A stretch of 64,000 bases of DNA, taken from Mesotaenium endlicherianum. Its lineage: Eukaryota. The DNA lies in contig WELA01000805.1 in the NCBI GenBank assembly GCA_009602735.1, positions 1 through 64,000 of the forward strand, written 5' to 3'. Shown here piece after piece: positions 34,760 through 63,357 of the stretch. The number at the start of each line of letters is the position of its first letter. The stretch's first letter is position 1. Position numbers and translations under genes: made by a program. The notes beneath the pieces were generated by a model that searched no databases, was not told the origin of the DNA, and saw only the letters and a program-made list of their open reading frames with translations.

Positions 34760-35793
34760 TCAAGAGACGGAAGTACACAGAGGCATATAATGTAACTGAT
34801 TGATGTACAGAAGATGATGTGCTATGTGTTATGTTTGGGACTTCTGCATAACATGGGAGGTGTTTTCATGTTCATCTTGTGGCTGTCGATATGCTTGTAC
34901 ATTCTTTGCTCCTTTGATTGCCTTCTTGTTGAGATTGAACTTTTTTCCTGTAGGTAATCTACAAGTTACTACACAGATTTCTTGCATGCTTGCACTTGTT
35001 TTCGTAATATTTATACTATTGCCCAGTTTTAATAATGACAGCCTGGAGAATGTTTTTAACATCCGAAGGACATTCACTAGCTGATTTGATGTGATGATCA
35101 AATCGGGTTGGTGGAAGGAGACTCACAAGCTAAGTGTCAACCTTGTCTTTCATCTCATCGTTGTAAAGCCAACTTATAACAAGCCTAATATGTCCAAGTT
35201 AGCGAGGGGATTGTGCACAGTCAAAACTCCATTCACATTACATGTCAAAGTTTCTTCAAACATTTGTTTGTCTAGACTGGTAAAACTAGACTGCCACTTT
35301 TTTTTGCAGTGCACGATATAACATTAATAAGTCAATTAATCGTCTGCGGTCATGTTCCAGATTGTCAAAGATACCTTGTAGGGCGGGTGAAACAATATCT
35401 GGAGCCAAAGAATTGAGCCTAAACCTTGATATTTTAAGATGTTTTTGGCCTTTGGTTTTTTTCCAAAGGATCTTACTCCTTCTCTGATTGCTTTGTAGCT
35501 GCATATTTGCTCGCTCAGTTCAGAATCATTGTAGGTGAAATTCACACGAGTTCTTGTTACTGTAGAGCAATTTCATCTATTTACACATTGAAGACATCGC
35601 TTGGGGATACGACGTGCCTTCCTCAAGAGTCAAGCTTGTATGTGTGCCGTGCCTTCCTCAAGAGTCAAGCTTCTATGTGTATCGCATTATACTATGAAAA
35701 GAGACATTCAATTAATGTCTAACGGTGTTATATTTTGTTAGATTGTGCACCTCCACAAGCGTGTGCAAGTTCAATTTCTACTGTTCAAACCCA

Positions 35794-36930
35794 TGTCGTG
35801 CGTTACGAGGTCGAGTGCGCACCATAGGCATAAGCAACACATCATAGGCAAGCAGGCTTTGCTGCAATGGAGTCTATAATACATGTGGCGTTATAGCCAA
35901 AAAGGGAGTCAAGTCGAAAATGTTTTAATTAAGGAATGTGTACTCTCCAGAGTGAGCACCTCAAGACTGTAATCTGGTAGGAAAACAACTAATGAAGTAT
36001 GGCCCAAAAGATCACTGGAAGCACATCATGATCTTCAGAGTAGTCCTATGGCAAGGGCTTAAGCTGTGACTTTGCTCACCACTTGTGAAGTTCTTCAAGT
36101 GACTGGAAGCCTGGAGGGCTTGCTCTTCACAAGAGAGTAACTAAGTGGTCCTGAAAACACAAGAGATAAAAGTGTAAGCTTTACTGATAATCTCTGTTAC
36201 TTACACCTGGCATAATGGACTTCTAAAAGATGTCTCTTCTAGGGACATCTCTAGTACTTATACTCCTGGAAATCCGGCGGGGTGTGCGGCGGATCCAATG
36301 CATGTAGTCACTCTAGGAGGCTCTCCTATGTCCACTAATGTGTACAAGGCATGTACTAGCACTCTTATAGGCTAAGCATAACTCAAACCAATCAAAGCAA
36401 GGTGCGTAGGATATGCAACGTGGTCCTTATTGGCCGAGCTTACCTTGGGTGATTCTACCTAGATAGCGCCTCAAAAGTGGATCTGGAAATTGAGGAAGCT
36501 TCCTCTAGGAGTAGGTGATGCAGTCACCAAGTTATAGCCTCAATGATGCACATATACTATGGAAATGCAAAGCTTATGTAGGCTAAGGGGCTCGCGGATT
36601 TGTGCGCACAAAGCTTGGGGTCACGAAGAGCCAACAATGTCACCGTTGGGGACATTGAGTCACAAATTAGGCCTTGGGAAAGTTCCGCTAGGGACCGGTA
36701 GGTGACGCGGACTAGATCGCACCTATCTTGCTCGATACTTGACCAAATGACGCGAAATTGGTGTCATTCGGAAGATGCTTCGACGCGCTACACGTTGGTG
36801 ACTTGGAAATCTAGAAAAGGTCAACATACGGATGCGTAAAGTCAATGCAAAGTCGGCCTTCCTAGGTTGATGTTCTGCGCATGGGGAGCTTGGTTTTTAT
36901 ACGACAACCTCGACTCAATAAACCATGACA
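35794..36930 (-). repeat. 3' terminal repeat unit B2+A2 (1137 bp)
   Basis: 35931-36930 matches 45400-46399; 35794-35930 matches 36933-37069; the whole unit matches solo copy 62212-63357 in reverse. Confidence 0.95.
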
Positions 36931-36932
36931 GC

Positions 36933-37069
36933 TGTCGTGCGTTACGAGGTCGAGTGCGCACCATAGGCATAAGCAACACATCATAGGCAAGCAGGCTTTG
37001 CTGCAATGGAGTCTATATTACATGTGGCGTTGTAACCAAAAAGGGAGTCAAGTCGAAAATGTTTTAATT
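36933..37069 (-). repeat. repeat A1 (137 bp), preceded in sense by a G8 tract
   Basis: 3 mismatches versus 35794-35930; C8 run at 37070-37077 on the + strand. Confidence 0.95.
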
Positions 37070-37089
37070 CCCCCCCCAGCTCTCAGCCT

Positions 37090-37652
37090 CTAGCTGATGG
37101 GCTGTTGTACGCTGCCTAAGGCTAGCGCAGTGCAGTCTCCGCAGAACCAGTCTCCAGCTGGCACGCGGGCCAGCGGCAGGTCGAGGCAGCCGATGTGGAA
37201 GCCGAGGTTGCAGCTGTCGCAGAGCAGCATCTTGGCCTCCTGGCCAGTGCTGTGACAGATCTGGCACGCCCAGTCCTTGGGCGGCCGCACGTCGCGGGGA
37301 CGGACCTGCAAGTCAAGGTTAGGAAGGTGGCACGGCCCACAGTTCTTCATGTGGTCCTTGTGAAGACGGCCATCTGCGCCTTCCAGCTCCAGGACTCCTG
37401 ACGCCAAGGCACGCTTGACGCGCAGGATGACCGGCGAGCTGCTGGTGTCGAGGGTGTTCTTCGTCTGGCGTCGCAGGTACACNNNNNNNNNNNNNNNNNN
37501 NGGTGTTCTTCGTCTGGCGTCGCAGGTACACAAAGTCACCTGCGGAAAACTGCAACACCCGCGAATGATAGGCTCCTCCACGAGTCATGGCGTACCTCAG
37601 TGTGTCGCGATGCTGTGCGATGCTGAGGTTATCCATGGCCATGGGCATCAGA
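37090..37652 (-). pseudogene. integrase C-terminal region plus PHD finger
   Basis: NLSIAQHRDTLRYA...FSAGDFVYL (gypsy post-integrase tail) followed by C4HC3 CQIC...LLCDSC..GFHIGCL...P.GDWFCGDC. Confidence 0.85.
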
Positions 37653-39248
37653 GAGATAGTGCCTGAAGTGCACGATCGCCCAGACCGCTGCCAGGCACTC
37701 CCCTTCGTAGGAGCCGTAGTTGCCTTCCGCGCCGTTGTTGCTGCGGCTGGCGTAGGCCACCACATGCTCAAAGCCGTCATGCTCCTGCACCAGCACAGCG
37801 CCCAGCCCTGCCTGCGACCAGTCGGTGTGGAGGATGAAGGGCTTTGCGTAGTCAGGACGCCGAAGCACAGGAGCGCTCACCAGCAGCTCCTTGAGCTTAT
37901 CGAATGCCGCCGGCTGCTGTGGTCCCCACACGTAGGCAACGCCCTTGCGGAGCAAGTCGTTGAGCGGCTTGGCTAGCTCGCTGAACCCTGGCACGAAGCG
38001 GCGGTAGTAGTTGGCGATGCCGAGGAAGGCCCGCAGCTGCGAGAGATCTGTAGGAGGTGGGATGCCTGTGATGGCCGAGATCTTCGCCAGCTGGGGTGCC
38101 AAGCCGCTGGAGGAGAGCAGGTGGCCAAGGTACTGCACCTTGCGGGTCCCAAAAGTGCACTTGCCTGGATGGCACTTGAGCCCAGCAGCCTCCAAGCGGT
38201 CTAGGACAGCAGTGATGTGCGCCACGTGCTCCTCAAACGTCTGACTGAAGACGAGCACGTCATCGATGTAGCATCGGGCAAAGGACAGCCCGGCCAGCTC
38301 CTTATCCATCACCCTCTGAAAGGTAGCTGGCGCGTTCTTCAACCCAAACGGCATCACCACCCACTTGTAGAGCCGCTGTGCTCCCCAGAATGCCGTCTTA
38401 TGCTGGTCCTCCTTGGCGATGGGAATCTGGTTGAAGCCCTGACGCAGATCCAGCACTGAGAACCAAGTGCACGTGCCAATGTCGTCAAAGATCTCGTCAG
38501 GCGTCGGCATAGGATATCTGTCCTGCTCGGTGACCTCATTCAGCCTACGATAGTCACCGCACATCCTCTTCTCGGACCAGTTGCCCGAGGCATCCTTCTT
38601 GGCTGGCATGACCGTGGGTGCGGCATAGCGAGAGGAGGACTCCCGAATGAGCCGGCTGTCCTCCAGCTTGCCTGTCTGCGCGCTGATCAAGCCATCCTCG
38701 AAGTGGCTGTAGCGATAACGCTTCAGGAAAATGGGCTCCTGCGACGTGAGAGTAATCCGCATGGGGTCCCCCCTGTAGCGCCCGAGATCGTGCATGCCGC
38801 TGGCAAAGCTGGTGCTGCGCCTCCCGTCCAGCAGTGCCGTCAACTGTGCAGCCTGCGCCTTGGTGAGTGTCCCCCCCAGCTTCCATGTCGGTGGAGCTGG
38901 TGGCGTCGCCTGGCCTGCAGCTGGAGTCTCTTGTCTTGCCGCTGGGGTAGATTGTGGTGCTGCAGGTGTCACCTGCCCTGCAGCGGTTGGCGCTCGGCCT
39001 GCCGCGGGTACCTGCACTGTGGCAGCTGCGGCCAGCTGCCTGGCACCGTCTGCCTGCGAGCGACCGTTTGCCTGCGAGCGAGGAAAAAGAAAAGGTGACC
39101 GGGACTCCCTGGGGAAAGGTGACCGAGACTCCCTGGGTCGCTGTGAGGACTCCTCTCTCCGCCGGCCCCCCCCCAGCGAACCAGAGTCCTCACTGCGCGG
39201 TGGGGGGCGCGCGCCTGCGGTGCAGGCCCTGCGCGCTGAGGATGCCAC
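37653..39248 (-). CDS. Ty3/gypsy reverse transcriptase and truncated RNase H
   Basis: RMCGDYRRLN, LDLRQGFNQI, MPFGLKNAPATFQR, YIDD (38259-38270), LHTDWS, YASR; RNase H breaks off after HFRHYL. Confidence 0.95.
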
Positions 39249-41752
39249 GTCGTGCCGGGCGGGGCCTGATGGTCATCGTCGGTGGAGTCATCGTCCATAT
39301 CATCGGCAGGCGGAGGCAGCTCGGGATGCCGGGCTGCGGCGTAGAGAGGCGCCAAGGCCTGCGTCTGCAGCAGGATCCACGTGAGGACGTTGGCGTCGAT
39401 TGCCTGCCCCAAGAGGCAAATGCGGTTCACCTCAGTGAGACCGTCCACCTGTGTGAGATGCGGCGGGAAGCCCATGGCACGCTCCATCTCTGCAGGGCGC
39501 GGCCTGTCAAACATGCCAGTCTCCAGGTCGATGACCATCCCGCGCTGATCTCCGACGAAGGCGTCGCTGTCGTAGCGGCTGACAAAAGTCGGCAGCGCGC
39601 GAGTGACGTCATGCAGGACCTCACACTGCGCCACGGAGGGATGTGGTAGTGCAGTCACGCGCTGGGCCAGACGAGGGGCATCGAGGATGGAGTCGACGGT
39701 GCGTGGGTGACGTGGATGAGAGGCGGCCAACGCCTCGAGAGTACCTGGCATTGCCAGGTTGGTGAAGTAGGCGCGGACGCGGTGCGCGAAGGAAACAATC
39801 TGGGCAGCGTTGATGAGGGCCTCGCGGCCGACATAGCTGCTGCAAAGAGCGAAGTCGGCGCTAACATCGGGTCGGTGATCGTGGTGCGCGGCCACGTTCT
39901 CCAGGACCCACGCGAGTGTGTGCGGCGGCTGGCGATCCTCAACAATGTTGAGGACGCGGAGCAAGTGCCAGAAGAGGGCCGTGCGGGGATCGCTGAGCGC
40001 CCTGCCACGTCTGGCTCTGGAGAGCCCTTGGCACTCCCAATCGACGATGACGAGGTCAATGGGCCCAAGTTGGGTGACATGCTCGACGGTGATGTCGCGG
40101 ATGTCCATGGGCCAGTCTGTCTGAGCGCGGCGAAATGCGTGCGCGGGAAGGAGGTCAGGGAATCGCTCGTGGCCCAACGCCATCTGCCGACGGGCCACCT
40201 GCTGAGCCTCAGGATCGGGATCGACGTAGACGTAGCGGCGCACTGGGATGCCGGCTTGTAAGGTCGCGAGCAACCCGGTGGCGATGCCGGCGAAGAGCTT
40301 GACGAGGACGATGCCGCCGGGCCGCTTGTCTAGAGCGTCTGCGCAGATAGGAGTCGGAAGTGGGCGACACCCCATTGCGAGGGTGCCGGGCTGAGCGGGC
40401 GGCGGGAAGGTGCGCGCGGCGCTGTGCTGATGGGGCGCCATGCGGAGGGCGGCCACAGCATGGTCTGCGTAGTCACGCGTAAGGCTGGGGATGCAGTCAG
40501 TGAGCGGCTGCGGACGCTCCTCCCGTGCGTGGTCCTGGTAGGTGCGCCACCGCAGGCGCGCATCCTGCAGGGCTGTTGGAGAGACAGCGCGGGCCTGACG
40601 TCGGGCCGAGGCCACGCACAGCTGCTGCCACCTGTCGCGCTGGGCAAGGTCAGTCTGGTGCAAGGCCGCGTGTGCCAGTTGGTCGAGAACGGGACGCTGA
40701 GTCAAGTAGGGGTGCGGGCCGAAGTAGGCCCGCTGGCGTGCGCGCATGTCGGCAGAGGGGACTGTGCAAACGGAGCGCTCGGAGCTGTCGACCTCCTGCG
40801 GGGACCAAACTAACCGGCGAGGGGCTAGCTGGACTGGCGGCTGGGGCTGCCTTCGTGGGACGGGCGCGTCTCGGGGCTGCCGGAGACTAGACATGAGCCG
40901 TGTGCGTGCGGCGGCCGTAAATGGGTGGCGACTGGGCGGCCTGCTGTCGGTGCGGGCTACCTTGGGAGGAGGTGACCCGGAGGGACCGTCGTCAGCGATG
41001 TGGCTACGAGGGATGCTGGCGCGCGGAGCGATAGGGGCCAGCATCACAAAATGCGCCTCGGAAGAAGACTGAGCGTCGTCGCCAGCGGAGAGGGGCCGAA
41101 AGGGCGGAGTGCGGCGTCGGTCTCGAGTGTCGTTGTATGGCGGTGTGTCCCCGCGGGCCCGCGTGTCGTCGTAAGGAGGCGTGCGCTCCCTGTCGTCGTA
41201 GGGCGGCGTGATGGAGCGGGCTCGCATCTTGCGGAGGGGAGTCACCTCTCGCGTCTCGCAAAGGGGTGTGAGCGATCGGGAGCGGCTCGTCTCGCGGAGA
41301 GGAGTGGTCTCTTGAGCGGACCCAATGGTCGGCCTAGTGCGGCGTGCGTAGGTCAGATGGGCGCAGATAGACGGGGTCGTGCGGGGTGGCTTGCGGACGC
41401 TGAGCCTGGGCGCTGGCTGCTGTATGGAGTGTGTGCCAGCGCTAGAGGAGGCCGCGGCAGCCCGGCTCGTCGCAAATAAATGTGCGATGCGGCGACACTC
41501 GTGGCTCGTCGAGCAGTCGTGTGACACTGGACAGCTGGGTCCAGCGGCGTTGGTGCGAGCCCTGCTGGGCCAGTCGTGTGTCATGGGCTGGCTGGGTGCG
41601 CTGAAGCCGGGCGGACCAAAAGGTGCGCGCTGCCTGCGTGCCGTAGGCGCAGCTGGCGGGGGCTCCTCTGGTGGCGCCGCGCTGAGTACCTCGTCGGATG
41701 CCTCTGGCAGTCGCTCCCACTGTGTCTCCTCCTCACTCCGGAGAGTACACAT
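38969..41752 (-). CDS. ORF with a low-complexity N-terminus and a C5 cytosine methyltransferase domain (~39360-40315)
   Basis: Motif I LFAGIA, II YVYVD, III DIRDI, IV DLVIVDWECQGLS (Cys codon 40031-40033), VI VLENV, VIII AHRVRAYFTNL, IX EMERAMGFP, X LLGQAIDAN, in canonical order. Confidence 0.9.
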   Translation of the reverse strand: MCTLRSEEETQWERLPEASDEVLSAAPPEEPPPAAPTARRQRAPFGPPGFSAPSQPMTHDWPSRARTNAAGPSCPVSHDCSTSHECRRIAHLFATSRAAAASSSAGTHSIQQPAPRLSVRKPPRTTPSICAHLTYARRTRPTIGSAQETTPLRETSRSRSLTPLCETREVTPLRKMRARSITPPYDDRERTPPYDDTRARGDTPPYNDTRDRRRTPPFRPLSAGDDAQSSSEAHFVMLAPIAPRASIPRSHIADDGPSGSPPPKVARTDSRPPSRHPFTAAARTRLMSSLRQPRDAPVPRRQPQPPVQLAPRRLVWSPQEVDSSERSVCTVPSADMRARQRAYFGPHPYLTQRPVLDQLAHAALHQTDLAQRDRWQQLCVASARRQARAVSPTALQDARLRWRTYQDHAREERPQPLTDCIPSLTRDYADHAVAALRMAPHQHSAARTFPPPAQPGTLAMGCRPLPTPICADALDKRPGGIVLVKLFAGIATGLLATLQAGIPVRRYVYVDPDPEAQQVARRQMALGHERFPDLLPAHAFRRAQTDWPMDIRDITVEHVTQLGPIDLVIVDWECQGLSRARRGRALSDPRTALFWHLLRVLNIVEDRQPPHTLAWVLENVAAHHDHRPDVSADFALCSSYVGREALINAAQIVSFAHRVRAYFTNLAMPGTLEALAASHPRHPRTVDSILDAPRLAQRVTALPHPSVAQCEVLHDVTRALPTFVSRYDSDAFVGDQRGMVIDLETGMFDRPRPAEMERAMGFPPHLTQVDGLTEVNRICLLGQAIDANVLTWILLQTQALAPLYAAARHPELPPPADDMDDDSTDDDHQAPPGTTWHPQRAGPAPQARAPHRAVRTLVRWGGAGGERSPHSDPGSLGHLSPGSPGHLFFFLARRQTVARRQTVPGSWPQLPQCRYPRQAERQPLQGR

Positions 41753-41760
41753 TCCTTACT
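41732..41760 (-). promoter_or_regulatory. 29-nt internal region complementary to the B1/internal junction (45397-45425)
   Basis: 28/29 inverted match; the single difference is a G-U pair in the sense RNA. Confidence 0.85.
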
Positions 41761-41898
41761 CTTGAGGGACTGGTCGTCGGATCTGCCAGGATAAGCTGCC
41801 TGCTGCATGGCCTCGTCCTCGGATGTTGTGGTGCGAGGCCAAGTCTCGCCGGTCTGATGCGAGGCGTCGTGAGGGGGCGGCTGAGAGTCCATACAGTA

Positions 41899-43101
41899 CT
41901 AAATGGCCACGCCAACAGGCACGTCGTGGCGAACGCGGACGTCGATCCTCGCGGACGGCCTGCCGCGAGAGGCCGAGACCCCCTGATGTGCCGTAGGCGC
42001 TGCGGCCGCACCGCGAGCAAGGGCGGCGGCAGCGATGGCTGTGCTGGCCGTGGCGAGGGCCTCAATGGCATCGTCCGCCATCTGCCGCATCATCGCGCTG
42101 TGGGCAGTGCAGATGCGGATCTGCTCCCTGGCCTGGGCTGCCAGGACATCCGCCTGCTGCTGTGGCGTGAGGTGGAGCTCGGCACTAGGTAGGTCCGGCT
42201 CCTCGTCCTGTGGCTCGAGCAGGTACACCCCCACCGAGATCTCCTCGTCCTCGGGCCCGTCCTTATTGGTCTTGACCACTGGCCGGCCATCGCCCAGCCC
42301 CACGAAGCCATAAAGAGTGGACACTGCTGGGCGGCGATCGACAATGTCAAGGGGCAAGGATGCGGTGCGCGTCCCCCCTGTCCTCCAGTCGGGACGATAG
42401 AAGACGCGCTCCGCCCAGTTGTCGACCGCGGCGCTAATGGGAAAGAGCACGTCCTGCCCTAGGAGCACATCAAAGGACTCGGAAGGAGTGACGAGTGCGT
42501 GCCGATGGATGGTTGTCTCATCTGCCGTGCCTGGGCGCAGAGTGAATAGTAGCGCCAACCTCGTGCGGCCGGCGACGGTCTCGGACGTGCCGGCGGCGGT
42601 GTTCATGCGCGTCGGAGAGTCCTCCAAGTCGGCGGAAGAGAGTCCCAACTGACGGAAGTAGCGGAGGCTGATGAGAACCGGCTGCGCGCCTGTGTCGAAC
42701 ATGATGCGCTGCAGCGCCTGGGTGTTGACGAGCACGATCCCCTGCAAATTATCCAAAAATGCGGCGTTTGGAGTGCTGATCATCCTGCGCTCATGCGCAG
42801 GACGCGCGGGCGTGGATCGCACCGCAGTGGCGGCATCAGCCGTCGGCCTCAGCGCCCTCCCCCCAATGCGTGGGTTAACCGGCCCCCCGGCAGCCTGCGT
42901 TGGGCTGCTGCCGGGGTTTTGTGCGCAGCCAGGATTTAGGCCCTGGCTGTGCGCAGCCGTGCGCGGGCCGTCGGCACCGCGATCGGACAACCGGCCGCGT
43001 GGCGCAATTGGGATAGCCCCCTCCTGATTGAGGGTGGCTGCTCCGACCGCAAAATCTGTGCTGGCTGAGCCGGGCCATGCGCGCATGCCAAGTGGCGGCA
43101 C
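41899..43101 (-). CDS. retroviral-type aspartic protease region
   Basis: RIMFDTGAQPVLIS active site and DVLLGQDVL C-terminal motif. Confidence 0.85.
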   Translation of the reverse strand: MPPLGMRAWPGSASTDFAVGAATLNQEGAIPIAPRGRLSDRGADGPRTAAHSQGLNPGCAQNPGSSPTQAAGGPVNPRIGGRALRPTADAATAVRSTPARPAHERRMISTPNAAFLDNLQGIVLVNTQALQRIMFDTGAQPVLISLRYFRQLGLSSADLEDSPTRMNTAAGTSETVAGRTRLALLFTLRPGTADETTIHRHALVTPSESFDVLLGQDVLFPISAAVDNWAERVFYRPDWRTGGTRTASLPLDIVDRRPAVSTLYGFVGLGDGRPVVKTNKDGPEDEEISVGVYLLEPQDEEPDLPSAELHLTPQQQADVLAAQAREQIRICTAHSAMMRQMADDAIEALATASTAIAAAALARGAAAAPTAHQGVSASRGRPSARIDVRVRHDVPVGVAI

Positions 43102-43345
43102 GTGCGCGGCAGGGGCTGAGCCCTGGATGTGCGCAGCTGCGGGTGCGCTGTCGGCGCTTTTGCCGACGATCCGGCCGCACAGCGCAGTCAGGACCCCCCC
43201 CAGCTAACCGAGGGTGGCGGCCGCTGCGGCCGTCGCTGCGCTGGCCGTGCGGGATTGCGCGCACGCGCCACTTGGCANNNNNNNNNNNNNNNNNNNNNNN
43301 NNNNNNNNNNNNNNNNNNNNNNNNNNNNNNNNNNNNNNNNNNNNN

Positions 43346-45350
43346 CTGGCAGCGCAGTGCGCTGGGCGCGCGTGTGAGCCAGCGTGCGTGCGTGCATGCT
43401 GCTGTCGGCAGAGGCGGCCCCGCCTGCCGTGCACGTGCCACGTGGCGGATTCTGCTGGAGCCTGCTGTCTGCAGCAGCCAGCGGGGACCGGCTGTCCCTG
43501 CCTGTGCGCAGAGCTGCGCATGAGCGTGCCGCACGGACGGAGAGGGAGGCTGCGGCCGGACCAGCTTTAGCCGTGCACGCCGCCAGGTGCCCCCGTCCCA
43601 ACCTGCCAGCTGTCGCTACGCGGGCTGACAGGAGGCCTGCTGGTGCGAGCACGAAAGCGCAAGCCAGGGGCTTTGTCGGGGCCTCGGCTGGCGTGCGGGC
43701 TAGCCCGCGTGCGCGCGAGCTTGCGCCGAGAGATGGCGCAACCGCGCAGTCGTGCAACCTGCCATCCGGCAATCTGTCGGGCCTCCGGTTGTTGCTGCTG
43801 ACAGTGGTTAAAGCGGTGCGCACAGGGCTAGCAGAGCTGCCGGTGCGGGCGCCGGCAGCTCTGGCAGCGGGCACTACGTCGTAACGCGGACGTGCGCGGG
43901 GCTGCGGCGCTGCCGCTGAGCCTGATGTGTGCGCTGAAGCTGTGCGTGCGCCAGCTGTCAGTGTCGTGGCATAGGACGGTGGAGCGGACGCGAGGAGTGC
44001 TCCGCTCGCGTCATAGTTATCGACGTCGACGAGGCCACGGAGTCTAGCGATCTCCGCGTTGGCCTCCACGAGGGCGTCGCTGACGTCGTCGAAGCTGCAG
44101 TACTTGGCTCCATGCATCCATGCGGCGTCCGTCGTGGCCGTAGCTGCTGTCATTGCGGGGCGGCCACCCGTACAAGGGTTGCGTGCGCCTCGCTGTCTTG
44201 CTGAAGGCGTAGGGCCGTCGCGAGCGCGTCCGTTCTTGACGTCGCGCTTCTTCTGCAGACAGACAATCTGCAGGTGGCCGGCCTTGCCACAATAGGTGCA
44301 GTCGCCGGGCTTGCCATTCTGCGCGAGAGTGCAGTTCTGGCGTGAGTGGCCCGTCTTCCCGCAGGACCAGCAGGGATCGCTCGTAGTGGCAGCCATGAAA
44401 ATGCGGCCACGCGTAGCTTCGCGCTGCTGCGTCTGCTGGGGCAGCTGAGAGCGCTGAGGCTGCTGCTGCTGCGACTGGGGCTGGCGGGCAGGCGTCGTGC
44501 GCGTCGTAGAAGACGGCAGCACTGAGGCCTCCTGGCGCACGCCCGTGGATGCTAAGCCCACACGATCGCTAATATTGCTCCGTGCGGCGGCCAAGCTCTG
44601 CTTCTCAACGGAGAGGTAGGCCTGCTCCAGAGAATACTCTGAATCGTGGCGGTCGATGAGGGGGACTACGGCCCTCTCCCTCAGACGCGGCTCTACGGCG
44701 CGCAAGAAGATCTCCGCGGCCTCCCGGTCAGTGACAGCGCCGACATCGCGGCGGAGGTGCACCAAGCGGCGGTACATCATGCGGATAGTCTCGTTCTTGC
44801 GTCGGAAGAAATGGTGCAGCTCGTACACCTTCTCTTCAGTTGCAACCTGGAACTTTGTCTTCAGGATATTCCAGAAGGCTTGCACTGGATCAGCTAGCAG
44901 GGTCGCCACTGGTGGGTCACCCACAAGCTCAGTGCGGGTCCGGAGCTCGGCCTCCTTCTCACGGAAGGTGTCGCGGGNACGGGCCTCGTGCGAGAGGTCG
45001 CGCATAAGCGTGTCGAAGGCGTCGCGCTTAGTCAGCGTGGGTGTCTTGAGCTTTGCAGCCGCGAAGTCAACCTGAAACTCCGAGATGGTATCTTCCAGAT
45101 CACAGGTGCCTGGCCTACCGCTAAAGCGGTAGGAAGACGTGTCAGTCTTGACCTCGTGGTCACCTGCCATGGGATACCAGAAATCGTAGTGAGCCCACTG
45201 GGGAGATGGCTCAGAAGCAACTGCTGTGTGCTGGAGAGCAGGTTGCTCTTCTTCGGCGGGTTCAGTGATAGTGCTGAGATCTGAGTCTGAGTTTTTTCCA
45301 CTAACCCCTTCGTAGTATGGCTGATAGGAAAGCCCACTACGGGTAGGCAT
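43346..45350 (-). CDS. Gag with two CCHC zinc knuckles
   Basis: Starts MPTRSG; helical capsid-like region; CWSCGKTGHSRQNC and CTYCGKAGHLQIVC; the frame beyond gap 43278-43345 is unknown. Confidence 0.85.
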
Positions 45351-45399
45351 ACGCTGAAGGTTCTAATTGCTTGCAGGCAAAGAGAGATCTTTTAGAAGT

Positions 45400-46399
45400 A
45401 AGGAATGTGTACTCTCCAGAGTGAGCACCTCAAGATTGTAATCTGGTAGGAAAACAACTAATGAAGTTTGGCTCAAAAGATCACTGGAAGCACATCATGA
45501 TCTTCAGAGTAGTCCTATGGCAAGGGCTTAAGCTGTGACTTTGCTCACCACTTGTGAAGTTCTTCAAGTGACTGGAAGCCTGGAGGGCTTGCTCTTCACA
45601 AGAGAGTAACTAAGTGGTCTTGAAAACACAAGAGATAAAAGTGTAAGCTTTACTGATAATCTCTCTTACTTACACCTGGCATAATGGACTTCTAAAAGAT
45701 GTCTCTTCTAGGGACATCTCTAGTACTTATACTCCTGGAATTCCGGCGGGGTGTGCGGCGGATCCAATGCATGTAGTCACTCTAGGAGGCTCTCCTATGT
45801 CCACTAATGTGTACAAGGCATGTACTAGCACTCCTATAGGCTAAGCATAACTCAAACCAATCAAAGCAAGGTGCGTAGGATATGCTACGTGGTCCTCATT
45901 GGCCGAGCTTACCTTGGGTGATTCTACCTAGATAGCGCCTCAAAAGTGGATCTGGAAATTGAGGAAGCTTCCTCTAGGAGTAGGTGATGCAGTCACCAAG
46001 TTATAGCCTCAATGATGCACATATACTATGGAAATGCAAAGCTTATGTAGGCTAAGGGGCTCGCGGATTTGTGCGCACAAAGCTTGGGGTCACGAAGAGC
46101 CAACAATGTCACCGTTGGGGACATTGAGTCACAAATTAGGCCTTGGGAAAGTTCCGCTAGGGACCGGTAGGTGACGCGGACTAGATCGCACCTATCTTGC
46201 TCGATACTTGACCAAATGACGCGAAATTGGTGTCATTCGGAAGATGCTTCGACGCGCTACACGTTGGTGACTTGGACATCTAGAAAAGGTCAACATACGG
46301 ATGCGTAAAGTCAATGCAAAGTTGGCCTTCCTAGGTTGATGTTCTGCACATGGGGAGCTTGATTTTGATACGACAACCTCGACTCAATAAATCATGACA
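45400..46399 (-). repeat. 5' terminal repeat B1 (1000 bp)
   Basis: About 15 substitutions (by-eye count) versus 35931-36930; lacks the A segment and is not followed by a TGG-type PBS. Confidence 0.95.
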
Positions 46400-49300
46400 C
46401 CCATTATTGGCGCAATCGACGCAACCACCGCCCACCCTCTCTCCACCATGCCTTCTCCCTCTTCACCCTCTCTTTCTCTCTAACACCTTAACAAGCAGAC
46501 GGCCATGGCCGCCTGCAACGACAAGCGGCCATGGGTGCCCACCATCGTGCCCCTCCAAGCTTTCGACCCCACAAAGCCATCTAATGAGAGATAGCGCTCT
46601 GTCCCACGACCCCATGACAAGCTTACTAGCGGCCCAGGCTAGGCTTTGCCTTGCTTTTCCTTGCCATGGCCATTCCAAAAAAGGTCCTTAAGGGTGCAGT
46701 GTCTAAGCGAAGAAGAGGAGTAAGTTATGGCAAAGCCCTAATGTATGGCGGGCACGAAAGAGCGGCCCGCGAAGAAAAGGCGTTACCACAACGAACGCTT
46801 GCAACGTGCACGGGCCAGCGCTCACATGAGCGAGGACCCTTACTGATTTCCCCCTCACAAAACTTACGTGAGCGGTGCCTTATTGACGACAAACAAACAA
46901 CCGCACATTATACATGATGTCGGCATGATGTGTACATTTCTGAACATCAGGTCACAAAGTAAGGTGTAAAGTCAACGGCAGTTGACTTGAGTGGAGCCTT
47001 TGTTGCACATTGTTGCACATCAACCACGCTACGACCAAGCTACGACCATCTACGTCGCATATTGAACGGCAGCGCCGTGACCATAAGCTTTCGGTGAACA
47101 TATCGATCGTCACGATTGAAAGTTAACTAGTCTACTCGAGTTGCTGACGGAAAAGATAAGCTTTGCGTGTAGTTCTCCGCCGCCCCACACTTCACTCCGA
47201 GTTTTTCGCGCTCAAGGGATGTTTGCTTCCAGACGACTCGAGCAATGAGAACGCCCTCAACCATGGTCGACTGCAGCTCTCGAACAACTCTCAAACTGCT
47301 TGTTGCTTCAGCAATCCCCAGCGCTTATCCTGGGCTGGTCCTTGGTGCCGCCCCTGCGATGGGCAGAAGTTTCCACGGGCCAACGAGAGTCGTCAAAAAC
47401 CATGAGTCACATAACATCAACGTCACAAATACTCTTTTTATCAGCTGGTACCATGCTGGCGCCTGTTGGTGCCCATGTGAGGAAGGTTCTTACTACCATA
47501 TCATGTCAACATGTGGCCAGATATCCATTGGCAAGTAAGCCAGAAGTAAGCATATAGTCTGGGGTCCTGGATGGTCCTCGGAGTCTATGGGAGTCTGCTG
47601 GGAGTGGCAACTTTCATTGCTATGCGGGGAAAAGTGAAGGATACGGGAGAAAAGATGGCCGCGTCAGGAACACGGCAGAAAATTGTAAATTCTGTATGAA
47701 ATTTAACGCCAAAAAAATGGATAGCACCTATTTAGCCAGATTTAACGAAAATTATACGAAAACCTTGAAAATACGACGAGTTATTCTCCCACGCATATCC
47801 TTATTCGGGTGCCCTGCCCAGGCCTGCCTTCGAGTTTCACACCCCTGATCACCGTGCATGCTCTGAAGCTGCTCCAAAAAATTCTGAGGGGACGAGGACG
47901 AGGACGTCTGCTCCGGCCTCGATATATGTATGTATTCCTGGTCCCTGCATTTCTTCGTTGCTTTTAGGATACGGAAGCTTGCTCCTTACTTTGTGGCAAT
48001 ACCAAAGTTCTGCATGTAAAAGAAGCGTACGATTATTTTTACTATTTAATGGCTCCGTGCAGCTTTTGAAAAGGCTATATATCGGAAGCGACTAATATGG
48101 ATGAAGGGAAGGGGGAAGTTCCTGAGCTGGCGCCAAACGCTCACCATGAGCGCATCATTGAGGTGGGCCAAGTGTGCTTGATTACTTCTCTTGTGCGTTT
48201 CAAGTGTTTGTTTATCGAACATCACGCACTTTGGTGTTCATATCTATATACCCGATCGAGGTACAAAGCAAGTACGTCTTATACACAGATGTGTTGAAAT
48301 GATAAATGCTGTCTATGAAGAGCGTGTCTCCTGCGAGTGCGTTCGAAGCTCTTCTTTGCCAGAAACTTAAAAGTGAAAAAATGTGAAGAGTTGCAGAAGG
48401 TGAGTGTGAATATTGGAAAAATAGATGTGTGATAATGAGGCTCTTTAAGTGCGTTGCATTGCACTATTTTTGCAATGATCTGTATGACCCAGCCATTGGT
48501 AAGCTTGCTAGATTTGCAAGCTTAGGCTGTGTGCCAAGTAAGGTACGTGCCATCAGTGAGTAGTACTGTTATGATGTCAGAAGCAATCTTCAAAAAGACA
48601 AAGTTTCTGAGTGCCTTCTTATTGCTGTGACACAGCACCAGTGTACTTCAGTTCAAGTCTTGAAATCTCTGGCTGGCGAGTGAAGCTTATTATGTGAAAC
48701 TTAATGCTATTCTTCAGAAGTCCTCGGAATTGCTTCATGGCTTTCTTATACTAACCGTGACGGGCAATATAACGTGCATGTCTTTTGAGTTTCCCATACT
48801 TGCTTCACACCGTATACTACACCTCAACTTATATGTTGCACATATTCTTATGGTGAAAACACTTCATGAGCTGTAGATTTTCACCTAGTTTGTGATTGCT
48901 TGCTTGAAGGCTGATAGAAGAGGAAACTTTGGGGGACTTGTGAGTCGGGAAGGTGGTTGAAGGTTTGTAATTGATGTGTTCTGATAAATGATTTTGGTGA
49001 CTCCTCTCCATTGTGGTATGAGCACTTTGCAGGACTTTTCAAGCTAGCTCCTTCGTCAGCAGATGTCGGAGTTGCTGGCTGCCAGCGTGCAGGTGAACAT
49101 GCAGCAGCAGCAGCTCACGGAAACCCTGCATAGAACTTTTGGCAGCATAGGATCTGCCTTTTCTTGGGGGATTGACCTCCAGGACATGGAGGTAAAAACT
49201 GCAATAAACTTCTCCTTCTTGCACATGGACAGGAGTTGCGTTTGAGATAGTTTTTTTACTGAACATTCTAATAAGTATGATTATGGCTGCAATGTCTGCT

Positions 49301-50583: not shown

Positions 50584-51313
50584 TGAAAGGTGCAGAGTGC
50601 CCTAGTGGAAGCGTAGTGACTCACGAGGAAAAGAACTAGTTGCAATCATACTAAAGAGTGCAGCGGTATATCACTAAGAAAGCTTAGGAAAATTACTCAA
50701 CATTTTGAGTAGCAAGAAACTGCCCCCAAATGGTGTAAGATGAAAGGCCTTGTCATTACAAACCCGTAGAAATTTACAAAAGTGAAAACTGATGAGAAAC
50801 AAAGAAGTTATGCCTATTTATAATTTTTTGCCTAAGCGCTCCTCTCTAGCAGGAAGCTACGGATTTTCCTAAGTGTTCGTCAAATCGTCCCTTCCAGAAT
50901 ATTCGTGAGTAAGCCAGATCAGTCTAATCTGACGTGTCGGGTCAAATTGACGTCCACATACATGCATTGACATTACTAGAATATTCTATCTTAGACGCGC
51001 TAGGCTAAACCGAAACTTCTAGGTAAATCGACCTAGTGGGCACTCCGCGTCAGCCGAACTTACGTGAAGGTTCGAGTTCATTCTAACGAGCCAGATCGCT
51101 CGACGCTGTCGGTCGATCTGACGGTCGCGCTCACAGTCATCAACCGACCTCAAAACTAATTAAACTTCAGAATTCCGTAACTCTCTCAATACTTGACCAA
51201 ATTTGATGAACTTTATATCAAAATGACCACAAACATGCACTCTATACTACTATACAATCAAAACATACCTTCATGAAACTCAAAAATGCACTTTATAAAT
51301 CTATGACCTTACA
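50584..51313 (-). repeat. chromovirus 3' LTR
   Basis: Inverted copy of 56890-57625; TGTAAGG...CCTTTCA in sense. Confidence 0.93.
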
Positions 51314-54125
51314 TCATCCCCCTCCCCAAGATGCGACGTCCTCGACTCATTCTGCAAATAACGTCTCAACTGACTCTTACAATGAGTCAAGTTGGCCTCT
51401 GGCTCCCAAGTGTTGTCGTCCGCATGGTAGCCTTTCCACTTGAGCAGATACTCTTGGACAAATCGTTGACCTCGCTTGACTCGTCGATCGCCGACAATCG
51501 CCTCCACTTCATACTCCAATACATCATCGATCTCGACCGGTGGTGGCGGTGTAGGTAGTCGTCCTGGATGTCCTTCATTCGGGTCAACGTATGGCCGAAA
51601 ACAACTGACATGGAACACATCATGGATACGCCAGCCTGAAGAAAGCTCCAACTTGTAGGTCACTAGATTAACCTGCTTGAGCACCACAAAGGGACCTGTG
51701 AACCGTGCCCCCAGTTTCCTTTTGTCCGTGAAAGGTAGATTCTTTGTGGACAAGAGTACTTTGTCGCCCACATGGAATGTCACTTCCCTCCTGTGCTTGT
51801 TAGCATGCTTGAGCTGCTCTTCTTGTGCCTTTCGAATACACGTCTTCGCCATATCCCAAGTCTTGGCCATCTGCTCCATAAAAGCTTGTGTAGTAGGAAC
51901 CTGAGTCTCCTTGGCCTTCTCCAACAAGATGTTCCCTGGATGATATACTTCTCGCCCATAAACCATAGCAAATGGTGATTGCTTGGTCAATCCCTGCATG
52001 CTGTTGTTGTAGGCAAACTCCAATCCAGGCAACTTCTTGTCCCACTCTGAAGGGTCTTCCATAGTGAAACTCCTGAGCACCTCTTGCAGAGTTCTGTTGA
52101 GCCTCTCACTCTGCTCGTCTGTCTGAGGATGATAGAAAGTGCTCATACTCAGCTTGGTCCCCATCAATGTAAACAATGACCGCCAAAAGTTGCTAGTAAA
52201 CCTTGGATCCCGATCTGAAACAATCACCTTCGGCAACCCATGTAGCCTGAAAATATTATCAAAGAATAGCCGTGCCACATCCTCTGCCGTAGAAGTCTAC
52301 TTCATGGGAATGAAGTGAGCCATCTTGCTGAGTCTGTCAGACACAACCCATATTGCATCGTGCCCTTGACCACTCACTGGTAACGATGTCATGAAGTCCA
52401 TAGCAATCTGCTCCCAAGGATACTCTGGAATAGGCAGGGGATGCAATGTACCTCCCTTCTTTTGATTTGGTGTCTTGTTTCTCTGGCACGCATCGCAACT
52501 CCTGATCCACTCCTCGATGTTCTTGTCCATATTTCTCCAATAGTACTCCCGCTTCAGCACGCTTGCCGTCTTCTCGCTTCTAAAGTGTCCAGCATATAAG
52601 CAGTCACGATGCTCCGCAAGTAGTAAGTCTCGTAGCTCCTTGATGTCAGGTACCACCACTCCGTTGGAATCACCATAATATCATATGCCGTCCTTCTTTT
52701 GCGTACTCGCGATGGACTCAGCTGCTCCACCATCAGCAAACTCTGGGTCCTCCTCATAACCTCTTTGAAGCTTCTCCTTGAAGTCCATACTCTCCTTGAT
52801 GACTGAGACAGCTGCAAGGTCACACCTCCTGGATAAAGCGTCTGCAGGGTTGATCTTCCCAGGTAAGTACTCAATCTTGTGGTCGAACTGTTGCAGAAAC
52901 TCCATCCACCTTGCCTGTCTTGGTGTCAACGTTGGCTGCGTCATAAACTTCTCCAAGCTCTTGTGGTCGGTCTTGATGAACACCTTCCGTCCGTTCACAT
53001 AACATCGCCAAATCTTCAAAGCCTGGATAATAGCCAACATCTCCTGCTCGTGTGCTGCATAGTTCTGCTCCGCAGGATTCAACTTCCTGCTCTCGTATGC
53101 CACAGGCTGCAATCCCTTGCCCTGGTCCTGGAGAAGAATGGCTCCCACTGCAAAGTTTGATGCGTCCGTGATGATGGTGAAAGGAAGCTCTGGACTAGCA
53201 ATTGCCAACACAGGTGCCTGTGTCAACAGCTCCTTAATCTTCTCAAAAGCTTGCTGCTCCTTGTCACCCCATAGCCACTTCTCTTGCTTCTTCAACATGT
53301 CCGTGAGCGGTGCACACACCTTGGCAAATCCTTCAATGAATCGTTGAGAATTTTTTGCCATGCCGAGGAAACTCCTGAGTTAATGAATATCAGCAGGCAC
53401 CGGCCAATCTCTGACTGCTTGCACCTTCTTCTGCTCCACCTTGACTCCTTCAGCTCCCACTATGTGCCCAAGAAACTCGACCTCCTTGAGACCAAAGTTG
53501 CACTTGCTCATCTTCCCATATAAATTCTGATCTCTCAAGACCTCCAACACCTTCCTCAGATGCTCCACATGCTCTTCCAAGGTCTTCGAATAGATCAAGA
53601 TGTCGTCCAAAGTACCACCACAAACTGGTCCAAGTAGGGTTTGAAGATCCCATTCATGAGTCCCATGAATGTAGCAGGTGCATTAGTCAATCCAAAAGGC
53701 ATGACTGTGAACTCAAATAAACCATAGCGAGTCCTGAAAGCAGTCTTCTGAACGTCTCCTTCCGCAATTCGTACCTGGTGATAGCCACTCCTCAAATCGA
53801 TCTTCGAGAAATACTTTGCCCCGACAAGCCTGTCAATCAACTCGTCCACTCGTGGAAGTGGGTACCTGTTCTTGATGGTGACCTTGTTGAGTGCCCGATA
53901 GTCGACACACATCCTCATAGTCCCATCCTTCTTCTTTACAAACAAGACTGGCGCTGCAAATGGAGACTCGCTGGGTCGGATGAATCCCTTCTCCAACAAC
54001 CTTGTCAGCTGCTTCTTCAACTCGTCCAACTCCGCAAACGATTGACAATAGGCGGGTCTCACTGGTGGCTAGCTCCCTGGTTCCAACTCGATCTTGTGCT
54101 CCATAGCTCTCTGTGGAGGTAATCC
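50584..54125 (-). mobile_element. chromovirus (Ty3/gypsy) 3' half: RT-RH-INT-chromodomain plus 3' LTR, decayed
   Basis: [52 protein letters not shown]...YLLKWKGY...TWEPEANL; PPT GGGGAGGGGGATGA; LTR 50584-51313; multiple stops and frameshifts. Confidence 0.95.
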
Positions 54126-56299
54126 TCCACAGAGAGGAGGATTACCTCCTCCCCCCCCCCNNNNNNNNNNNNNNNNNNNNNNNNNCCCCCCCCCCCCCCC
54201 CCCCTCATCTCTCTCTCAGCCTCCCCTTTCGTGGTCTTGCCTTAATTTGCTTCCAATTGACTTGCAGTTTGTTTGTCCGTCGCCTCTCATCCTGTCTCTC
54301 TTGCACTTCTGAGGTTGGGGCTGCCATGTGCGCTCGCTTTCCTGGTGCGCTGTCAACTAGCTCGATGCTTGGTCTGCCCCTGTTCTCTTCTGGATCAGAG
54401 TTAGCTGCCACCCTGAGCTGGCAAGTCCAGTGCGTGGCTGTTGCGACTTACGAGGAGGAGCGGTAGACAGCGGCGGCGCTCAAGCTGGTGCCGCCTGCGG
54501 CATGTAGCTTGCCCTCCCTGCCGCCCACATGTTGCCGCCAGGCGCTCATTCTCGCTCCCAGGCGTGTTGGGCGCATCGCTGCCCCCGCTCATGTCTAAGT
54601 CGTTTTTTGCATGTTGGACACCTAGGCGCGCAGGCCGAACGAGCACGTGGGTGCTTGTGGTAAGGAGTGGGCTTTGTGCGGCAGGGTCGCACGTGGGATC
54701 GCTCTCACAGCGCCGCGAAGTTGCTCCTGCTCGTGGGCGGGAGGGGTCTGGTGTCAGTCCTCGGGGCTTATAGCTGGGAGCCGTGCGGGCGCTGTAGGGC
54801 ATTGAATGCGCTCTTTCTGTGGCTGCCAGCTGGCCTGCAACCGTGCTGCAGCCTGCCCTTCTCGTCGCCCAAGTCCTTCAGTCTTCAGGTGTGTTTGTGC
54901 GAGCGTATGTATGCGTGTTAAACGTGAATTTGCAGGAAATGCAATGCCCCTTAGTCTTCCAGTGCTCATGCCTCAGATCTTCTGCTGAGTGCTTATTGAC
55001 AGGCATATGCCTGAGCATTTCCTGTTGGTGCCCTTGCAAGTCAGTGGCAGTACAGACTGAGTTCTTGCAACAAAGAAGCTGCCAGCTAACTCGCTCCTCT
55101 TGAGGTCGAGCTGCGCAGCGCGCCATGCAGGATTTTTCTCTCTTTCACTCGGAAAGGGGGATATCAACGTCGCGAAAAAGAAGGCTGTAGGCACAATCGT
55201 TGCCCATTCTCGGAGCGCAGGAGGCGGACACATGCGTGCGAAGCGGCAATTGAGTGGAGGATGCTAGTTCAAACAGGCTGGCGTCCAGATCCAACCTGGG
55301 CGGTAGCAGAAAATTATTCGTGTACATTTTAGCTAAAGGACAACAAAGTAGGATGTGTTTTAGATGAGGGGTATTTCCCTCTAAGTGTTTATTTCTAGCA
55401 ATACGCTTTCCTTCTTCTTCATCCCTTCTTTTTAAAGTAAAGTTGATGAAAGTTGAAGCGTGAATGCTAGTGTTTGAGCAGAAGATTGTATATTTGAGCA
55501 GGAAGGCGAGATCAGTAACACTAAGCGAGAAAGAAACGCATTTCGAAGTAATTTTTAGAGATAGCACAGACGACATATGCAATTACTCCTCTTTGCATCT
55601 TCACAATTTTTTGGAATAAGTTACAACTTTATTGATAAGACCGCGTGTTACAGCACTATATAGGACTCTTATTTTTTATTCTTGCTAAAGCAATGGATAG
55701 TGCGCGCCCCTCATATCTTATTGGTGTGCTATCAGCCGCTAAAGTTGTAGCACTTATTTGCTTCTTTCAGGCCTGAGGGGCAAGTCTGCACGCCCTTGTG
55801 GTACCTGTGCATCAATGTTCTAGTGCATGCGAGGTCTAGCTGCACACCTGTCAACGTACCATCAAACTTGACAGTAGGGGCACCAATTGATCGAGCCGTC
55901 GGAGAAGCTCGGCTTGCGCCCCTGGTAAATACTTGTTCGTCGTTCCCATCAAAACCTCTCAACTGATTTTCGCCTCTAAACAACTATACAACACCTTCCA
56001 GCTAGGCAAGGCCGGCATCCACAGCATGCAAGGTGTCGCATCAAGGCTAGGCTGGGGTAGGGCTCACCCCTTACATTGCCTCCTTATTACCTACAAAGAA
56101 CCCTGAAGACTCCTTGCTGTCAAAGCTAGGGCTTCTAGACCTCCAACTGCGCCAATTTCGCACCTTACCCTCTTTTCCTCCCTTACTCCTCCCCCTTGAT
56201 CCTCATCCTCCCTTTCTCCTTCACCACCCTCGCTGGCAAGGACTCGCCCATCAAAGGGCATATTTCTTGGAGCTCCATGTCCTCCACCAGCCACCCCCC

Positions 56300-56884
56300 T
56301 TAGAGCTTGTGCACCACCTTCAGCTCACAGCTAGGCCGGTACCGAAAGTGGTACAGATCCATTGCCATGTGTCTGCGCTGCTGTAGCCGCCAAGAACCAG
56401 CAGGGACTTCCTCCTCCTCCTCTACCTCCTCCTCCTCCTCCACCATCTCCTGGTCCTCCTGGTCCTCCTGGTCGACATCCTCCTTCTCCACGTAGTTGTC
56501 CTCCTCCTCCACCTCCTCCTCCTCCTCCTCCTCCTCCTCGTTCTCCTCGTCGTTGTCCTCCTCCTCCTCGTTGTCCTCCAGCACCACCACCTCCACTTCC
56601 ATTACATCCACCAACCCCCCTAAGCGCCTGTGAACAATCACACCCTCGTCTGCGTTAGCAATAATCTCAACCTCCGCAAAAGACGGTGCCGCTGGCGCTG
56701 CGCACGGCCTCCTTGCCTGTGCACCCTCTTGGGCTTCGTCATCAGAGGAGTCGGAGAGAAGGTAAACTATAGGAGGCACCTCCTCCTCCTCCTCCTCCTC
56801 CTCCCCCTCCCCCTCCTCCTCCTCCTCCTCCTGCTCCTCCTCCTCCTCTTCCACCTCCTCCTCCTCCTCCGCCTGGGCAGCTCC
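56300..56884 (-). pseudogene. Glu-rich (GAG)n continuation of the 49492-50583 pseudogene
   Basis: Joining 50583 to 56884(-) across one TSD copy reads in frame as MATGDGS-GAAQAEEEEEVEEE. Confidence 0.55.
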
Positions 56885-56889
56885 AGAAC

Positions 56890-62211: not shown

Positions 62212-63357
62212 TGCCATGATTTATTGAGTCGAGGTTGACGTACAAAACCGAGCTCCACTTGTGTGAACCGTCGACCTAGGAAGACTGACTTTGCATTGAC
62301 CTTACGCATCTATATGTTGACCTTTTCTAGATTTCCAACTCACCAAAGTGTATCGCGTCAAAGCATCTTCCGAATGGCACCGGTTTCGCGTCATTTGGTC
62401 AAGTATCGAGCGAGATATTTGCGATCTAGTCCGCGTCACCTACCGGCCTCTAGCGGAACTTTCCCAAGGGCCAACTTGTGACTCAATGTCCCCGAAGGTG
62501 ACATTGTTGGCTCTTCGTGATCCCAAGGACCCCTAGCTTTGTACTCACAAATCCGCGAGCCCCTTAGACTACATAAGTCTTGCATTTCCATAGTATAAGT
62601 GCATCATTGAGGCTATAACTTGGTGCCTGCATCACCTACTCCTAGAGGAAGCTTCCTCAAGTTCCAGATTCACTTTTGAGGCACTATCTATGTAGAATCA
62701 CCCAAGGTTAGCTCCACCAATGAGAGACACATAGCATATTCTACGTGCTTTGCTTTGATTGGTTTGAGTTTTGCTTAGCCTATAGGAGCGCTAGTACATG
62801 CCTTGTACACATTAGTGGACGCTGGAGAGCCTTCTAGAGTGACTAGATGCATTGGATCCGCCGCATACCACGCCGGATTTCCATGAGTATAAGTACAAGA
62901 GATGTCTTTAGAGAAACATCTTTTTAGAAGTCCCATTATGCCAGGTGTAAGTAGCAGAGATTATCAGTAAAGCTTACACTTTTATCTCTTGAGTTTTCAA
63001 GACCACTTAGTTACTCTCTTATGAAGAGCAAGCCCTCCTAGCTTCCAGTCACTTGATGAACTTCACAAGTGGTGAGCAAAGTCACAGCTTATACCCTTGC
63101 AGAGGACTACTCTTGAAGATCATGATGTGCTTCCAGTGATCTTTTGGGCCATACTTCATTAGTTGTATTCCTACCAGTTTAAAATTTTGAGGTGCTCACT
63201 CTGGAGAGTACACACTCCTTAATTAAAACATCTGAGACTTGACTCCCTTTTTGGCTATAAAGCCACATGTATTATAGACTTCATTGCAGCAAAGCCTGCT
63301 TGCTTATGATGTGTTGCTTATGCCTATGTTGCGCACTCGACCTCGTAACGCACGACA
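62212..63357 (+). mobile_element. solo B+A terminal unit of the DNMT-gypsy family
   Basis: Collinear with the reverse complement of 35794-36930 but more diverged; TG...CA ends; 4-bp TSD GGTG (62208-62211, 63358-63361). Confidence 0.93.

Follow-up and report, generated by a model that had tools for sequence, protein, structure and literature searches.

A Gypsy-type retrotransposon family with split repeats and a proposed integrase site inside the repeat

The split-repeat element and its relatives

A stretch of 64,000 nucleotides from Mesotaenium endlicherianum (assembly GCA_009602735.1, contig WELA01000805.1, positions 1 to 64,000; hereafter, the window) was analysed, in which a Gypsy-type retrotransposon occupies positions 35794-46399 and reads on the minus strand. 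Its direct repeats are split, as comparison of the repeats within the window gave, in the sense direction, the order B1-coding region-G8-A1-GC-B2-A2. In particular, repeat alignment delimited B1 (1000 bp, 45400-46399), which starts with TG, A1 (137 bp, 36933-37069) and the GC spacer between A1 and B2 (36931-36932), while B2 (1000 bp, 35931-36930) was fused directly to A2 (137 bp, 35794-35930) at 35930/35931, with CA at the sense 3′ end of A2 closing the element; all of these lie on the minus strand. A1 and A2 differed at 3 of 137 bases, and B1 and B2 at 15 of 1000, both pairs being free of gaps. On both sides of the element, comparison of the flanks found a 4-bp target-site duplication, CCCA (35790-35793 and 46400-46403, plus strand). 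Moreover, a solo B+A unit on the plus strand (62212-63357, 90% identical) represents a separate insertion, with the same TG..CA ends, an identical B|A joint and its own 4-bp duplication (GGTG). The layout and coordinates had been proposed in an earlier reading of the same letters (the original prediction); re-measurement of the repeats, the ends and the CCCA duplication returned them exactly, and the TG..CA ends and 4-bp duplication were found in both insertions of the window.

Six frames of the window were scanned, in which Pfam families for a zinc knuckle, a protease, a cytosine methyltransferase, a reverse transcriptase (RT), an RNase H and a PHD finger were recognized. From the sense 5′ side, these were a gag-like frame with CCHC knuckles (43346-45350; zf-CCHC E 0.0015, under the curated cut-off), an aspartyl protease frame (41899-43203; E 1.8e-8), an open frame with a predicted C5 cytosine methyltransferase domain (38969-41755, the domain at ~39371-40315; DNA_methylase E 4e-4, also under the curated cut-off), the RT with a partial RNase H (37653-38954; RVT_1 E 6.8e-32), and an integrase C-terminal tail with a PHD finger (37093-37648; PHD E 2.6e-12), interrupted by an N gap at 37483-37501, all on the minus strand. 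The methyltransferase region showed 39% identity (E 5e-48) to the DNA methyltransferase (DNMT) region of a related metagenome element, L001. When the L001 open frame was compared with the window by tblastn, its residues 3-441 matched, followed by residues 880-928, and the gap between them marks a deletion at 37648-37653 (minus strand) that removed ~440 codons, namely the end of RNase H, the integrase zinc finger and the DDE core. The window copy is therefore dead and internally deleted, and the designation of its integrase as DDE-type rests on relatives.

Among the 120 matches listed, the best relatives reached 50-63% over RT-RNase H and included proteins of Closterium, Klebsormidium, Calypogeia and Marchantia; most carried rve and Integrase_H2C2 domains, often with PHD and DNA_methylase. 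The D,D-35-E residues of the integrase were invariant in 34 of 34 aligned rows, which include a few ordinary Gypsy outgroups. No tyrosine recombinase family was found among the 120 relatives listed or in the six window frames, and when 30 of the 49 open frames listed for three relatives were scanned, rve was detected twice (in L001 and L070) and a tyrosine recombinase in none. In a quick RT tree of 117 rows, the window RT fell inside a clade of 65 rows (SH-aLRT 99), which also held two K. nitens proteins, and the nearest relatives outside this clade were Gypsy elements. Thus, the Gypsy/DDE assignment of the original prediction stood for the RT, the integrase tail and the relatives' integrase, while the DDE core itself is gone from the window copy; the tyrosine recombinase that could have turned up in relatives did not. 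The domain order (protease-RT-RNase H-integrase) and the Gypsy-type RT are those of Ty3/Gypsy elements. However, two full long terminal repeats (LTRs) as element ends, likewise expected of Ty3/Gypsy, were found neither in the window, where the repeats are split, nor in related copies, where none of 23 left ends had A before B. A scan of viral contigs gave no match.

These related copies came from a metagenome scan, from which the best 80 of 569 loci were used. A total of 56 loci matched A or B references of two repeat families (f1 and f2), and 24 had no such match, among them L001, which represents a third family. Loci repeating one insertion were left out (L011, L012, L029, L036, L047 and L059), and L006 and L048 were counted once. 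Right ends reading purine tract-A-CA-2nt-TG-B were found in 25 insertions (20 of f1, four of f2 and L001), the motif being degenerate in L010, while 14 f1 insertions (12 with a clean end), that is, 14 of the 34 f1 right ends, had a single A after the coding region. All 23 left ends began with TG at B, and an A end preceding B, as a full A-GC-B repeat requires, was seen in none of them. Among whole elements with both ends resolved, eight read B-internal-A-GC-B-A and four B-internal-A, a further whole element (L025), whose ends were not assigned, being kept apart from these 12. A 4-bp duplication flanked all 12 (seven exact and five with one change), and all had TG..CA ends except one ending in TA. 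Furthermore, the internal CA-2nt-TG motif was kept across the three families, though each family's repeats needed a separate reference; the motif scan admitted substitutions only, and the spacer length was read from repeat alignments. Of 26 unexplained loci checked for the PHD end, 24 gave no match, one ended 166 nt beyond it and one ran into unrelated DNA. The split-repeat layout is real and family-wide: independent copies with different duplications were predicted to share it, which was borne out in three other families, and no conventional copy, with A before B, appeared among the 23 left ends.

Predicted reverse-transcription signals and the proposed internal attachment site

The G8 tract (37070-37077, C8 on the plus strand), a predicted primer of the plus strand, adjoins A1, whereas the corresponding minus-strand signal adjoins B1. 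The 13 bases directly after B1 (45387-45399, minus strand) are not a tRNA site; a complementarity search found that they are a perfect complement of 45688-45700, a stretch lying 301 nt before the end of B and 31 nt past the start of a TATAAG box. Within 45688-45731 (minus strand), the box takes up 45731-45726 and the putative self-primer 45700-45688, these 13 nt being where the RNA is predicted to begin; B1 is predicted to hold the promoter and the repeated (R) and unique 5′ (U5) regions. Complementarity of this kind of at least 11 nt occurred at only two sites among 8,125 internal positions: the priming site after B1, and 41732-41760, where the B end recurs as an inverted copy of 29 nt. We infer from these matches that the RNA would start ~31 nt after the TATA box in B1 and prime itself at the site after B1. 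Since the primer site adjoins B and the purine tract adjoins A, the repeat defined by reverse transcription is probably A-GC-B, with A1 as the first part of its downstream copy, and the TG and CA ends of the insertion would lie within that repeat. This repeat had been proposed from the purine tract before A, and the self-priming site now found next to B agrees with it.

In related copies, 13 of 24 left ends had an exact primer complement of 10-17 nt within B, following a TATA-like box, and L001 had one of 16 nt. Two observations weaken the case for the predicted priming: the other 11 left ends, from copies ~10% diverged, had no exact complement of at least 10 nt (five gave 7-8 nt and six none), and the ends of RNA reads accumulated at 36202 (11 at a depth of 41), 29 nt inside the predicted start at 36231. 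The reads, 83 from run X23 and 309 from run X24, came from source copies mostly 90-95% alike and covered B and hardly gag, so that expression of the full element is not demonstrated by them. These poly(A) RNA reads lay over 35931-36246, the 3′ part of B, some running into A and not into gag, and 12 of the X24 reads spanned a B|A joint. Their distribution suggests transcription from solo B-A units or from the right ends of diverged copies.

The 29-nt inverted copy (41732-41760, plus strand), identified by repeat search, comprises the B end and the first three bases of the priming site. It overlaps the first ATG of the methyltransferase frame and could pair with U5 in the RNA. It was considered as an internal complementary region like that of DIRS elements, and this was dropped when none of eight other elements had an equivalent (best matches of 9-11 nt).

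The two ends of the insertion meet inside the A-GC-B repeat at a near-palindromic attachment site (att), left uncut in the window copy at 36924-36939 (minus strand), which reads CACGACA-GC-TGTCATG in the sense direction, with two bases between CA and TG. In a 441-nt stretch around this site, 36930 and 36933 were each the point at which 10 contigs passed from the element into flanks that were unlike (agreement of 0.43-0.45), and the insertion ends of the window's own family therefore sit at att. Among the eight joints listed around att, there was none in which the TG end followed the purine tract directly, and only one contig of those listed, from run X12, bridged att with at least 31 bases on each side. 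When a stretch of one unit was divided into 30 bins, contigs of run X1 covered every bin, with a high summed depth, as of a high-copy family; the priming site was joined to B in at least six of them, while the junction of A with the purine tract was bridged by contigs of runs X5, X6 and X9. The X12 contig (324 nt, depth of 9) reads B end-A-GC-B start, an order expected of a copy with the mirror layout, of a circle or of a tandem, but equally of an assembly collapse, and it was not counted.

The B|A joint and possible routes of integration

A2 could not be copied from a primer after B1, and B and A must therefore be joined end to end, so that the boundary at 35930/35931 may be taken as the joint between two reverse-transcribed ends. 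The B|A joints of 20 f1 insertions were classified, 10 being precise and 10 altered. The altered joints comprised three losses of two bases, one loss of one base and three single added bases (C, A and T), together with an 18-nt filler (L010), a loss of ~150 nt of A (L065) and a joint displaced to ~135 nt upstream of the tract (L041). Apparent fillers at three joints were rejected as such, being mostly longer B ends that sister loci also have at B1, and these three cases now stand as gains of one base. When 27 repeat pairs were aligned, the repeats themselves showed 18 indels over 5,796 columns; against this background, 10 altered joints out of 20 had a probability of ~1e-10 in a 20-nt window, and of ~1e-6 when only seven were counted. 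Moreover, altered joints had precise sisters on the tree (L065 with L019, 96/89; L066 with L024, 93/91), and the 2-base losses fell in three places. As half of the joints were altered, far above the repeat background, these data suggest that the joint is made anew in each cycle, often imprecisely. Comparable scars are typical of the junctions of retroviral two-LTR circles.

Several points weigh against a joint made afresh. The joint classes were assigned by eye, and the three gains of one base use B ends taken from sister loci; just 4 of 17 branches of the joint tree were well supported; the joint of the best-sampled family is ATAT, so the three 2-base losses could be slippage after insertion; and both B|A joints in the window are precise. 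At the L041 joint (10907-11042), B2 is joined ~135 nt upstream of the purine tract, which leaves a second tract before A2, and looks like a captured cDNA end that was mis-primed or incompletely trimmed.

It is very probable that these elements combine an A-GC-B repeat, an att inside that repeat and integration by a DDE integrase. In the route proposed here, the RNA would start in B1 and its first 13 nt would prime the minus strand, as in Tf1, a step suggested by the complementarity, after which standard LTR reverse transcription would yield a linear A-GC-B/internal/A-GC-B molecule whose ends are not TG..CA. The right end of B would then be joined to the left end of A, anew in each cycle and often imprecisely, and the DDE integrase would nick after CA on both strands of CA-GC-TG; the nicked 2-base spacer would leave two CA-3′ ends with 5′ overhangs of 2 nt, shaped like retroviral ends after processing. 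What is seen in the genome after insertion is B-internal-A-GC-B-A, flanked by a 4-bp duplication and retaining one uncut att. More speculatively, only the upstream att might be used, perhaps because that repeat turns double-stranded first and integrase loads early. One-repeat circles, or later recombination of A with A, would give the common B-internal-A form, which fits equally well the use of both att sites or an assembly collapse and does not discriminate among them. That an end-joined circle forms first and is then opened by integrase at the internal site during insertion is given an even chance.

The weightiest point against this route is the single layout of the copies. The two att sites of a circle would be identical, yet the mirror product, B-A-GC-B-internal-A, was found at none of 23 left ends, as opposed to nine elements with both ends in the observed layout; an extra assumption, a bias for the upstream att, is therefore needed. 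In addition, 34 of the 39 insertions with scored right ends belong to one repeat family, all loci are short-read assemblies with no read spanning an element, and the circle, the cDNA and the cleavage are deduced. The original prediction, a two-repeat circle opened at an att site inside the repeat, is thus upheld as to the internal att and the DDE-type insertion, and not as to a free circle, for which the missing mirror layout is a difficulty.

Two further routes are each unlikely, though they account for much of the same evidence. In one, the integrase would cut the upstream att of linear cDNA and insert both halves, and host repair would join the loose B and A in the chromosome, where end joining would give B-internal-A-GC-B-A and annealing of the two A copies B-internal-A. 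The layout, the variable joints (10 of 20) and the single-A right ends (14 of 34) are all covered by this scheme, but it requires a chromosome break per insertion in a high-copy family and the same preference for the upstream att, and genomic sequence does not tell it apart from the circle route. In the other, for which the odds seem similarly poor, the RT itself would complete the B end and then jump across to the end of A, making a nicked circle in the particle with no need of a host ligase. Untemplated addition and clamping are properties of RT, and the single added bases (C, A and T) and the 2-base microhomology losses fit them; a jump on one strand could also help to account for the single observed layout. 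However, the 18-nt filler in L010, the upstream joint in L041 and the ~150-nt loss in L065 are more like products of repair.

A third possibility, that the joint is inherited as in PAT and Ngaro, by copying of read-through RNA or by a tyrosine recombinase acting in trans, with the split layout arising once, has been largely refuted and is now very improbable. The layout is formally A1-B1-A2-B2 (PMC4157794), as this possibility implies, and the 12 RNA reads of X24 across a B|A joint are in its favour. Against it stand the 4-bp duplications and TG..CA ends of the 12 resolved elements (with the one TA end), the conserved DDE triad with no recombinase matches among the proteins and frames scanned, the inability to copy A2 from the priming site after B1, and joint variants that do not track the tree. 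Finally, an assembly error or one-off rearrangement of an ordinary (B+A)-LTR element, which the N gaps of the scaffold within the element, one of them showing an overlap of 30 bp, might suggest, is hardly credible given the identical architecture and matching duplications in three other repeat families from other assemblies, the A-tract and primer-B junctions in independent runs, and an ordinary LTR element of the same window (866-6127) assembled with a normal LTR pair, from which it follows that the assembly resolves such pairs.

Related systems and further observations

The original prediction knew of no description of the combination; for the layout, one exists. In the legend of Figure 4c of de Mendoza et al. 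2018 (PMC5890265), KnitGypsy-Dnmt3 of Klebsormidium nitens is described as having repeats of DIRS type and domains of Gypsy type, and the window element is very probably of this kind. Both have Gypsy domains, a cytosine methyltransferase domain, Dnmt3-like in the published element and predicted in the window, and DIRS-type repeats, written as A-coding-B-A-B in that paper, although the comparison is with a legend description, and the two K. nitens proteins in the RT clade of the window do not bear the KnitGypsy-Dnmt3 label. No ends, duplications, priming signals, att or mechanism for KnitGypsy-Dnmt3 were found in the passages available from PMC5890265, whose figures may show more; 'target site' was not found in its main text, nor were KnitGypsy, TSD or primer in three supplements. 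A search of literature text found the name 'KnitGypsy' in that paper alone, while a 2026 preprint (10.64898/2026.05.21.726589) names streptophyte Gypsy-DNMT3 elements and does not mention repeats in the main-text passages available. No published mechanism for this layout was found in literature outside subscription journals and Repbase, and, as far as these searches reach, the internal att, the self-priming, the fresh joints and the one-sided layout are undescribed.

Compared with canonical Ty3/Gypsy elements (Metaviridae), the window element and its relatives share gag-protease-RT-RNase H-integrase, the D,D-35-E residues (in the relatives), TG..CA ends, a 4-bp duplication and a purine tract, and the predicted primer from the RNA's own 5′ end resembles the self-priming of Tf1/sushi (accessible text of PMC7175516 and PMC12440569). 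Unlike the canonical elements, the ends made by RT and those used by integrase lie 137 and 1000 bp apart, while the repeats of the inserted copy are split and one att stays uncut in it. Such an anatomy speaks against integration from a linear cDNA processed at its ends, the substrate of the canonical elements. PAT, TOC, Ngaro and VIPER have the same A1-ORFs-B1-A2-B2 layout (PMC4157794 and PMC12440569, in the passages available), but integrate by a tyrosine recombinase, whereas for the window element none was found, the RT is of Gypsy type and 4-bp duplications are made. The cleavage of two-LTR circles in HIV-1 and foamy virus likewise involves a DDE integrase acting on a palindromic junction of abutted ends (PMC4372172, PMC1180852 and PMC1905944), and PMC4372172 describes it for HIV-1 as a route held in reserve. 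In these viruses, integrase cuts at the joint of the circle, and the reaction is a side path that restores normal ends, while the window element encodes its site within the repeat and at a distance from the joint, and use of that site appears to be the normal route. In the IS3, IS30, IS21 and IS256 families, a DDE enzyme also opens the abutted ends of a circle, separated by a short spacer, and inserts it; however, these are bacterial DNA transposons whose junction is built by transposase in each cycle, in contrast to an att inherited through RNA (accessible text of PMC3299598).

It is fairly probable that, in a widespread DDE-integrase clade of the green lineage, reverse transcription and integrase no longer share the same ends, with an inherited CA-2nt-TG att within the LTR and an end-joined circle as the normal route, and that the clade has thereby converged both on the layout of repeats found in tyrosine-recombinase elements and on circle chemistry of the IS3 type. 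The accepted substrate of integration in retroviruses and LTR elements is a linear DNA with trimmed ends, two-LTR circles being dead ends or at best a reserve (PMC4372172, in its accessible text). If the proposal is true, a retroviral-type integrase can sustain a full life cycle by internal cleavage at an att inside the LTR, a 16-bp substrate open to direct biochemical test. The proposal would also account for a layout unexplained in a figure legend since 2018, and implies that, in genomes of algal and bryophyte type, a high-copy family is overlooked or wrongly delimited by search tools that rely on LTR pairs.

Regarding the frames of these elements, gag-protease-DNMT of L001 (1369 aa) ends at a single in-frame TAG (5083-5085), after which RT-RNase H-integrase-PHD (1047 aa) follows, and many relatives are annotated as proteins of ~1,000-1,150 aa beginning at RT. 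In the window, unlike the TAG-separated frames of L001, the methyltransferase and RT frames overlap at 38969-39272. These arrangements suggest that recoding may occur downstream of the methyltransferase.

Other features of the window were also recorded. The ordinary LTR element at 866-6127 has two full repeats of ~460-480 bp, TG..CA ends and a 5-bp duplication (AGGAC), with a purine tract before the second repeat and, after the first, a primer site starting TGGTATC, which we take to be of the tRNA-Met type. Inside the split-repeat element, a 30-bp sequence lies on either side of a 19-N gap (37453-37531), probably a scaffolding overlap, and a 35-bp tandem duplication occurs in the flank at 35613-35680, 110 bp from the element. 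Furthermore, inverted repeats of ~730 bp (94-97%) at 50584-57625 enclose a second Gypsy-like pol on the minus strand (51928-54095), a structure that might be explained by a nested insertion or by a pair of LTRs in inverted orientation.

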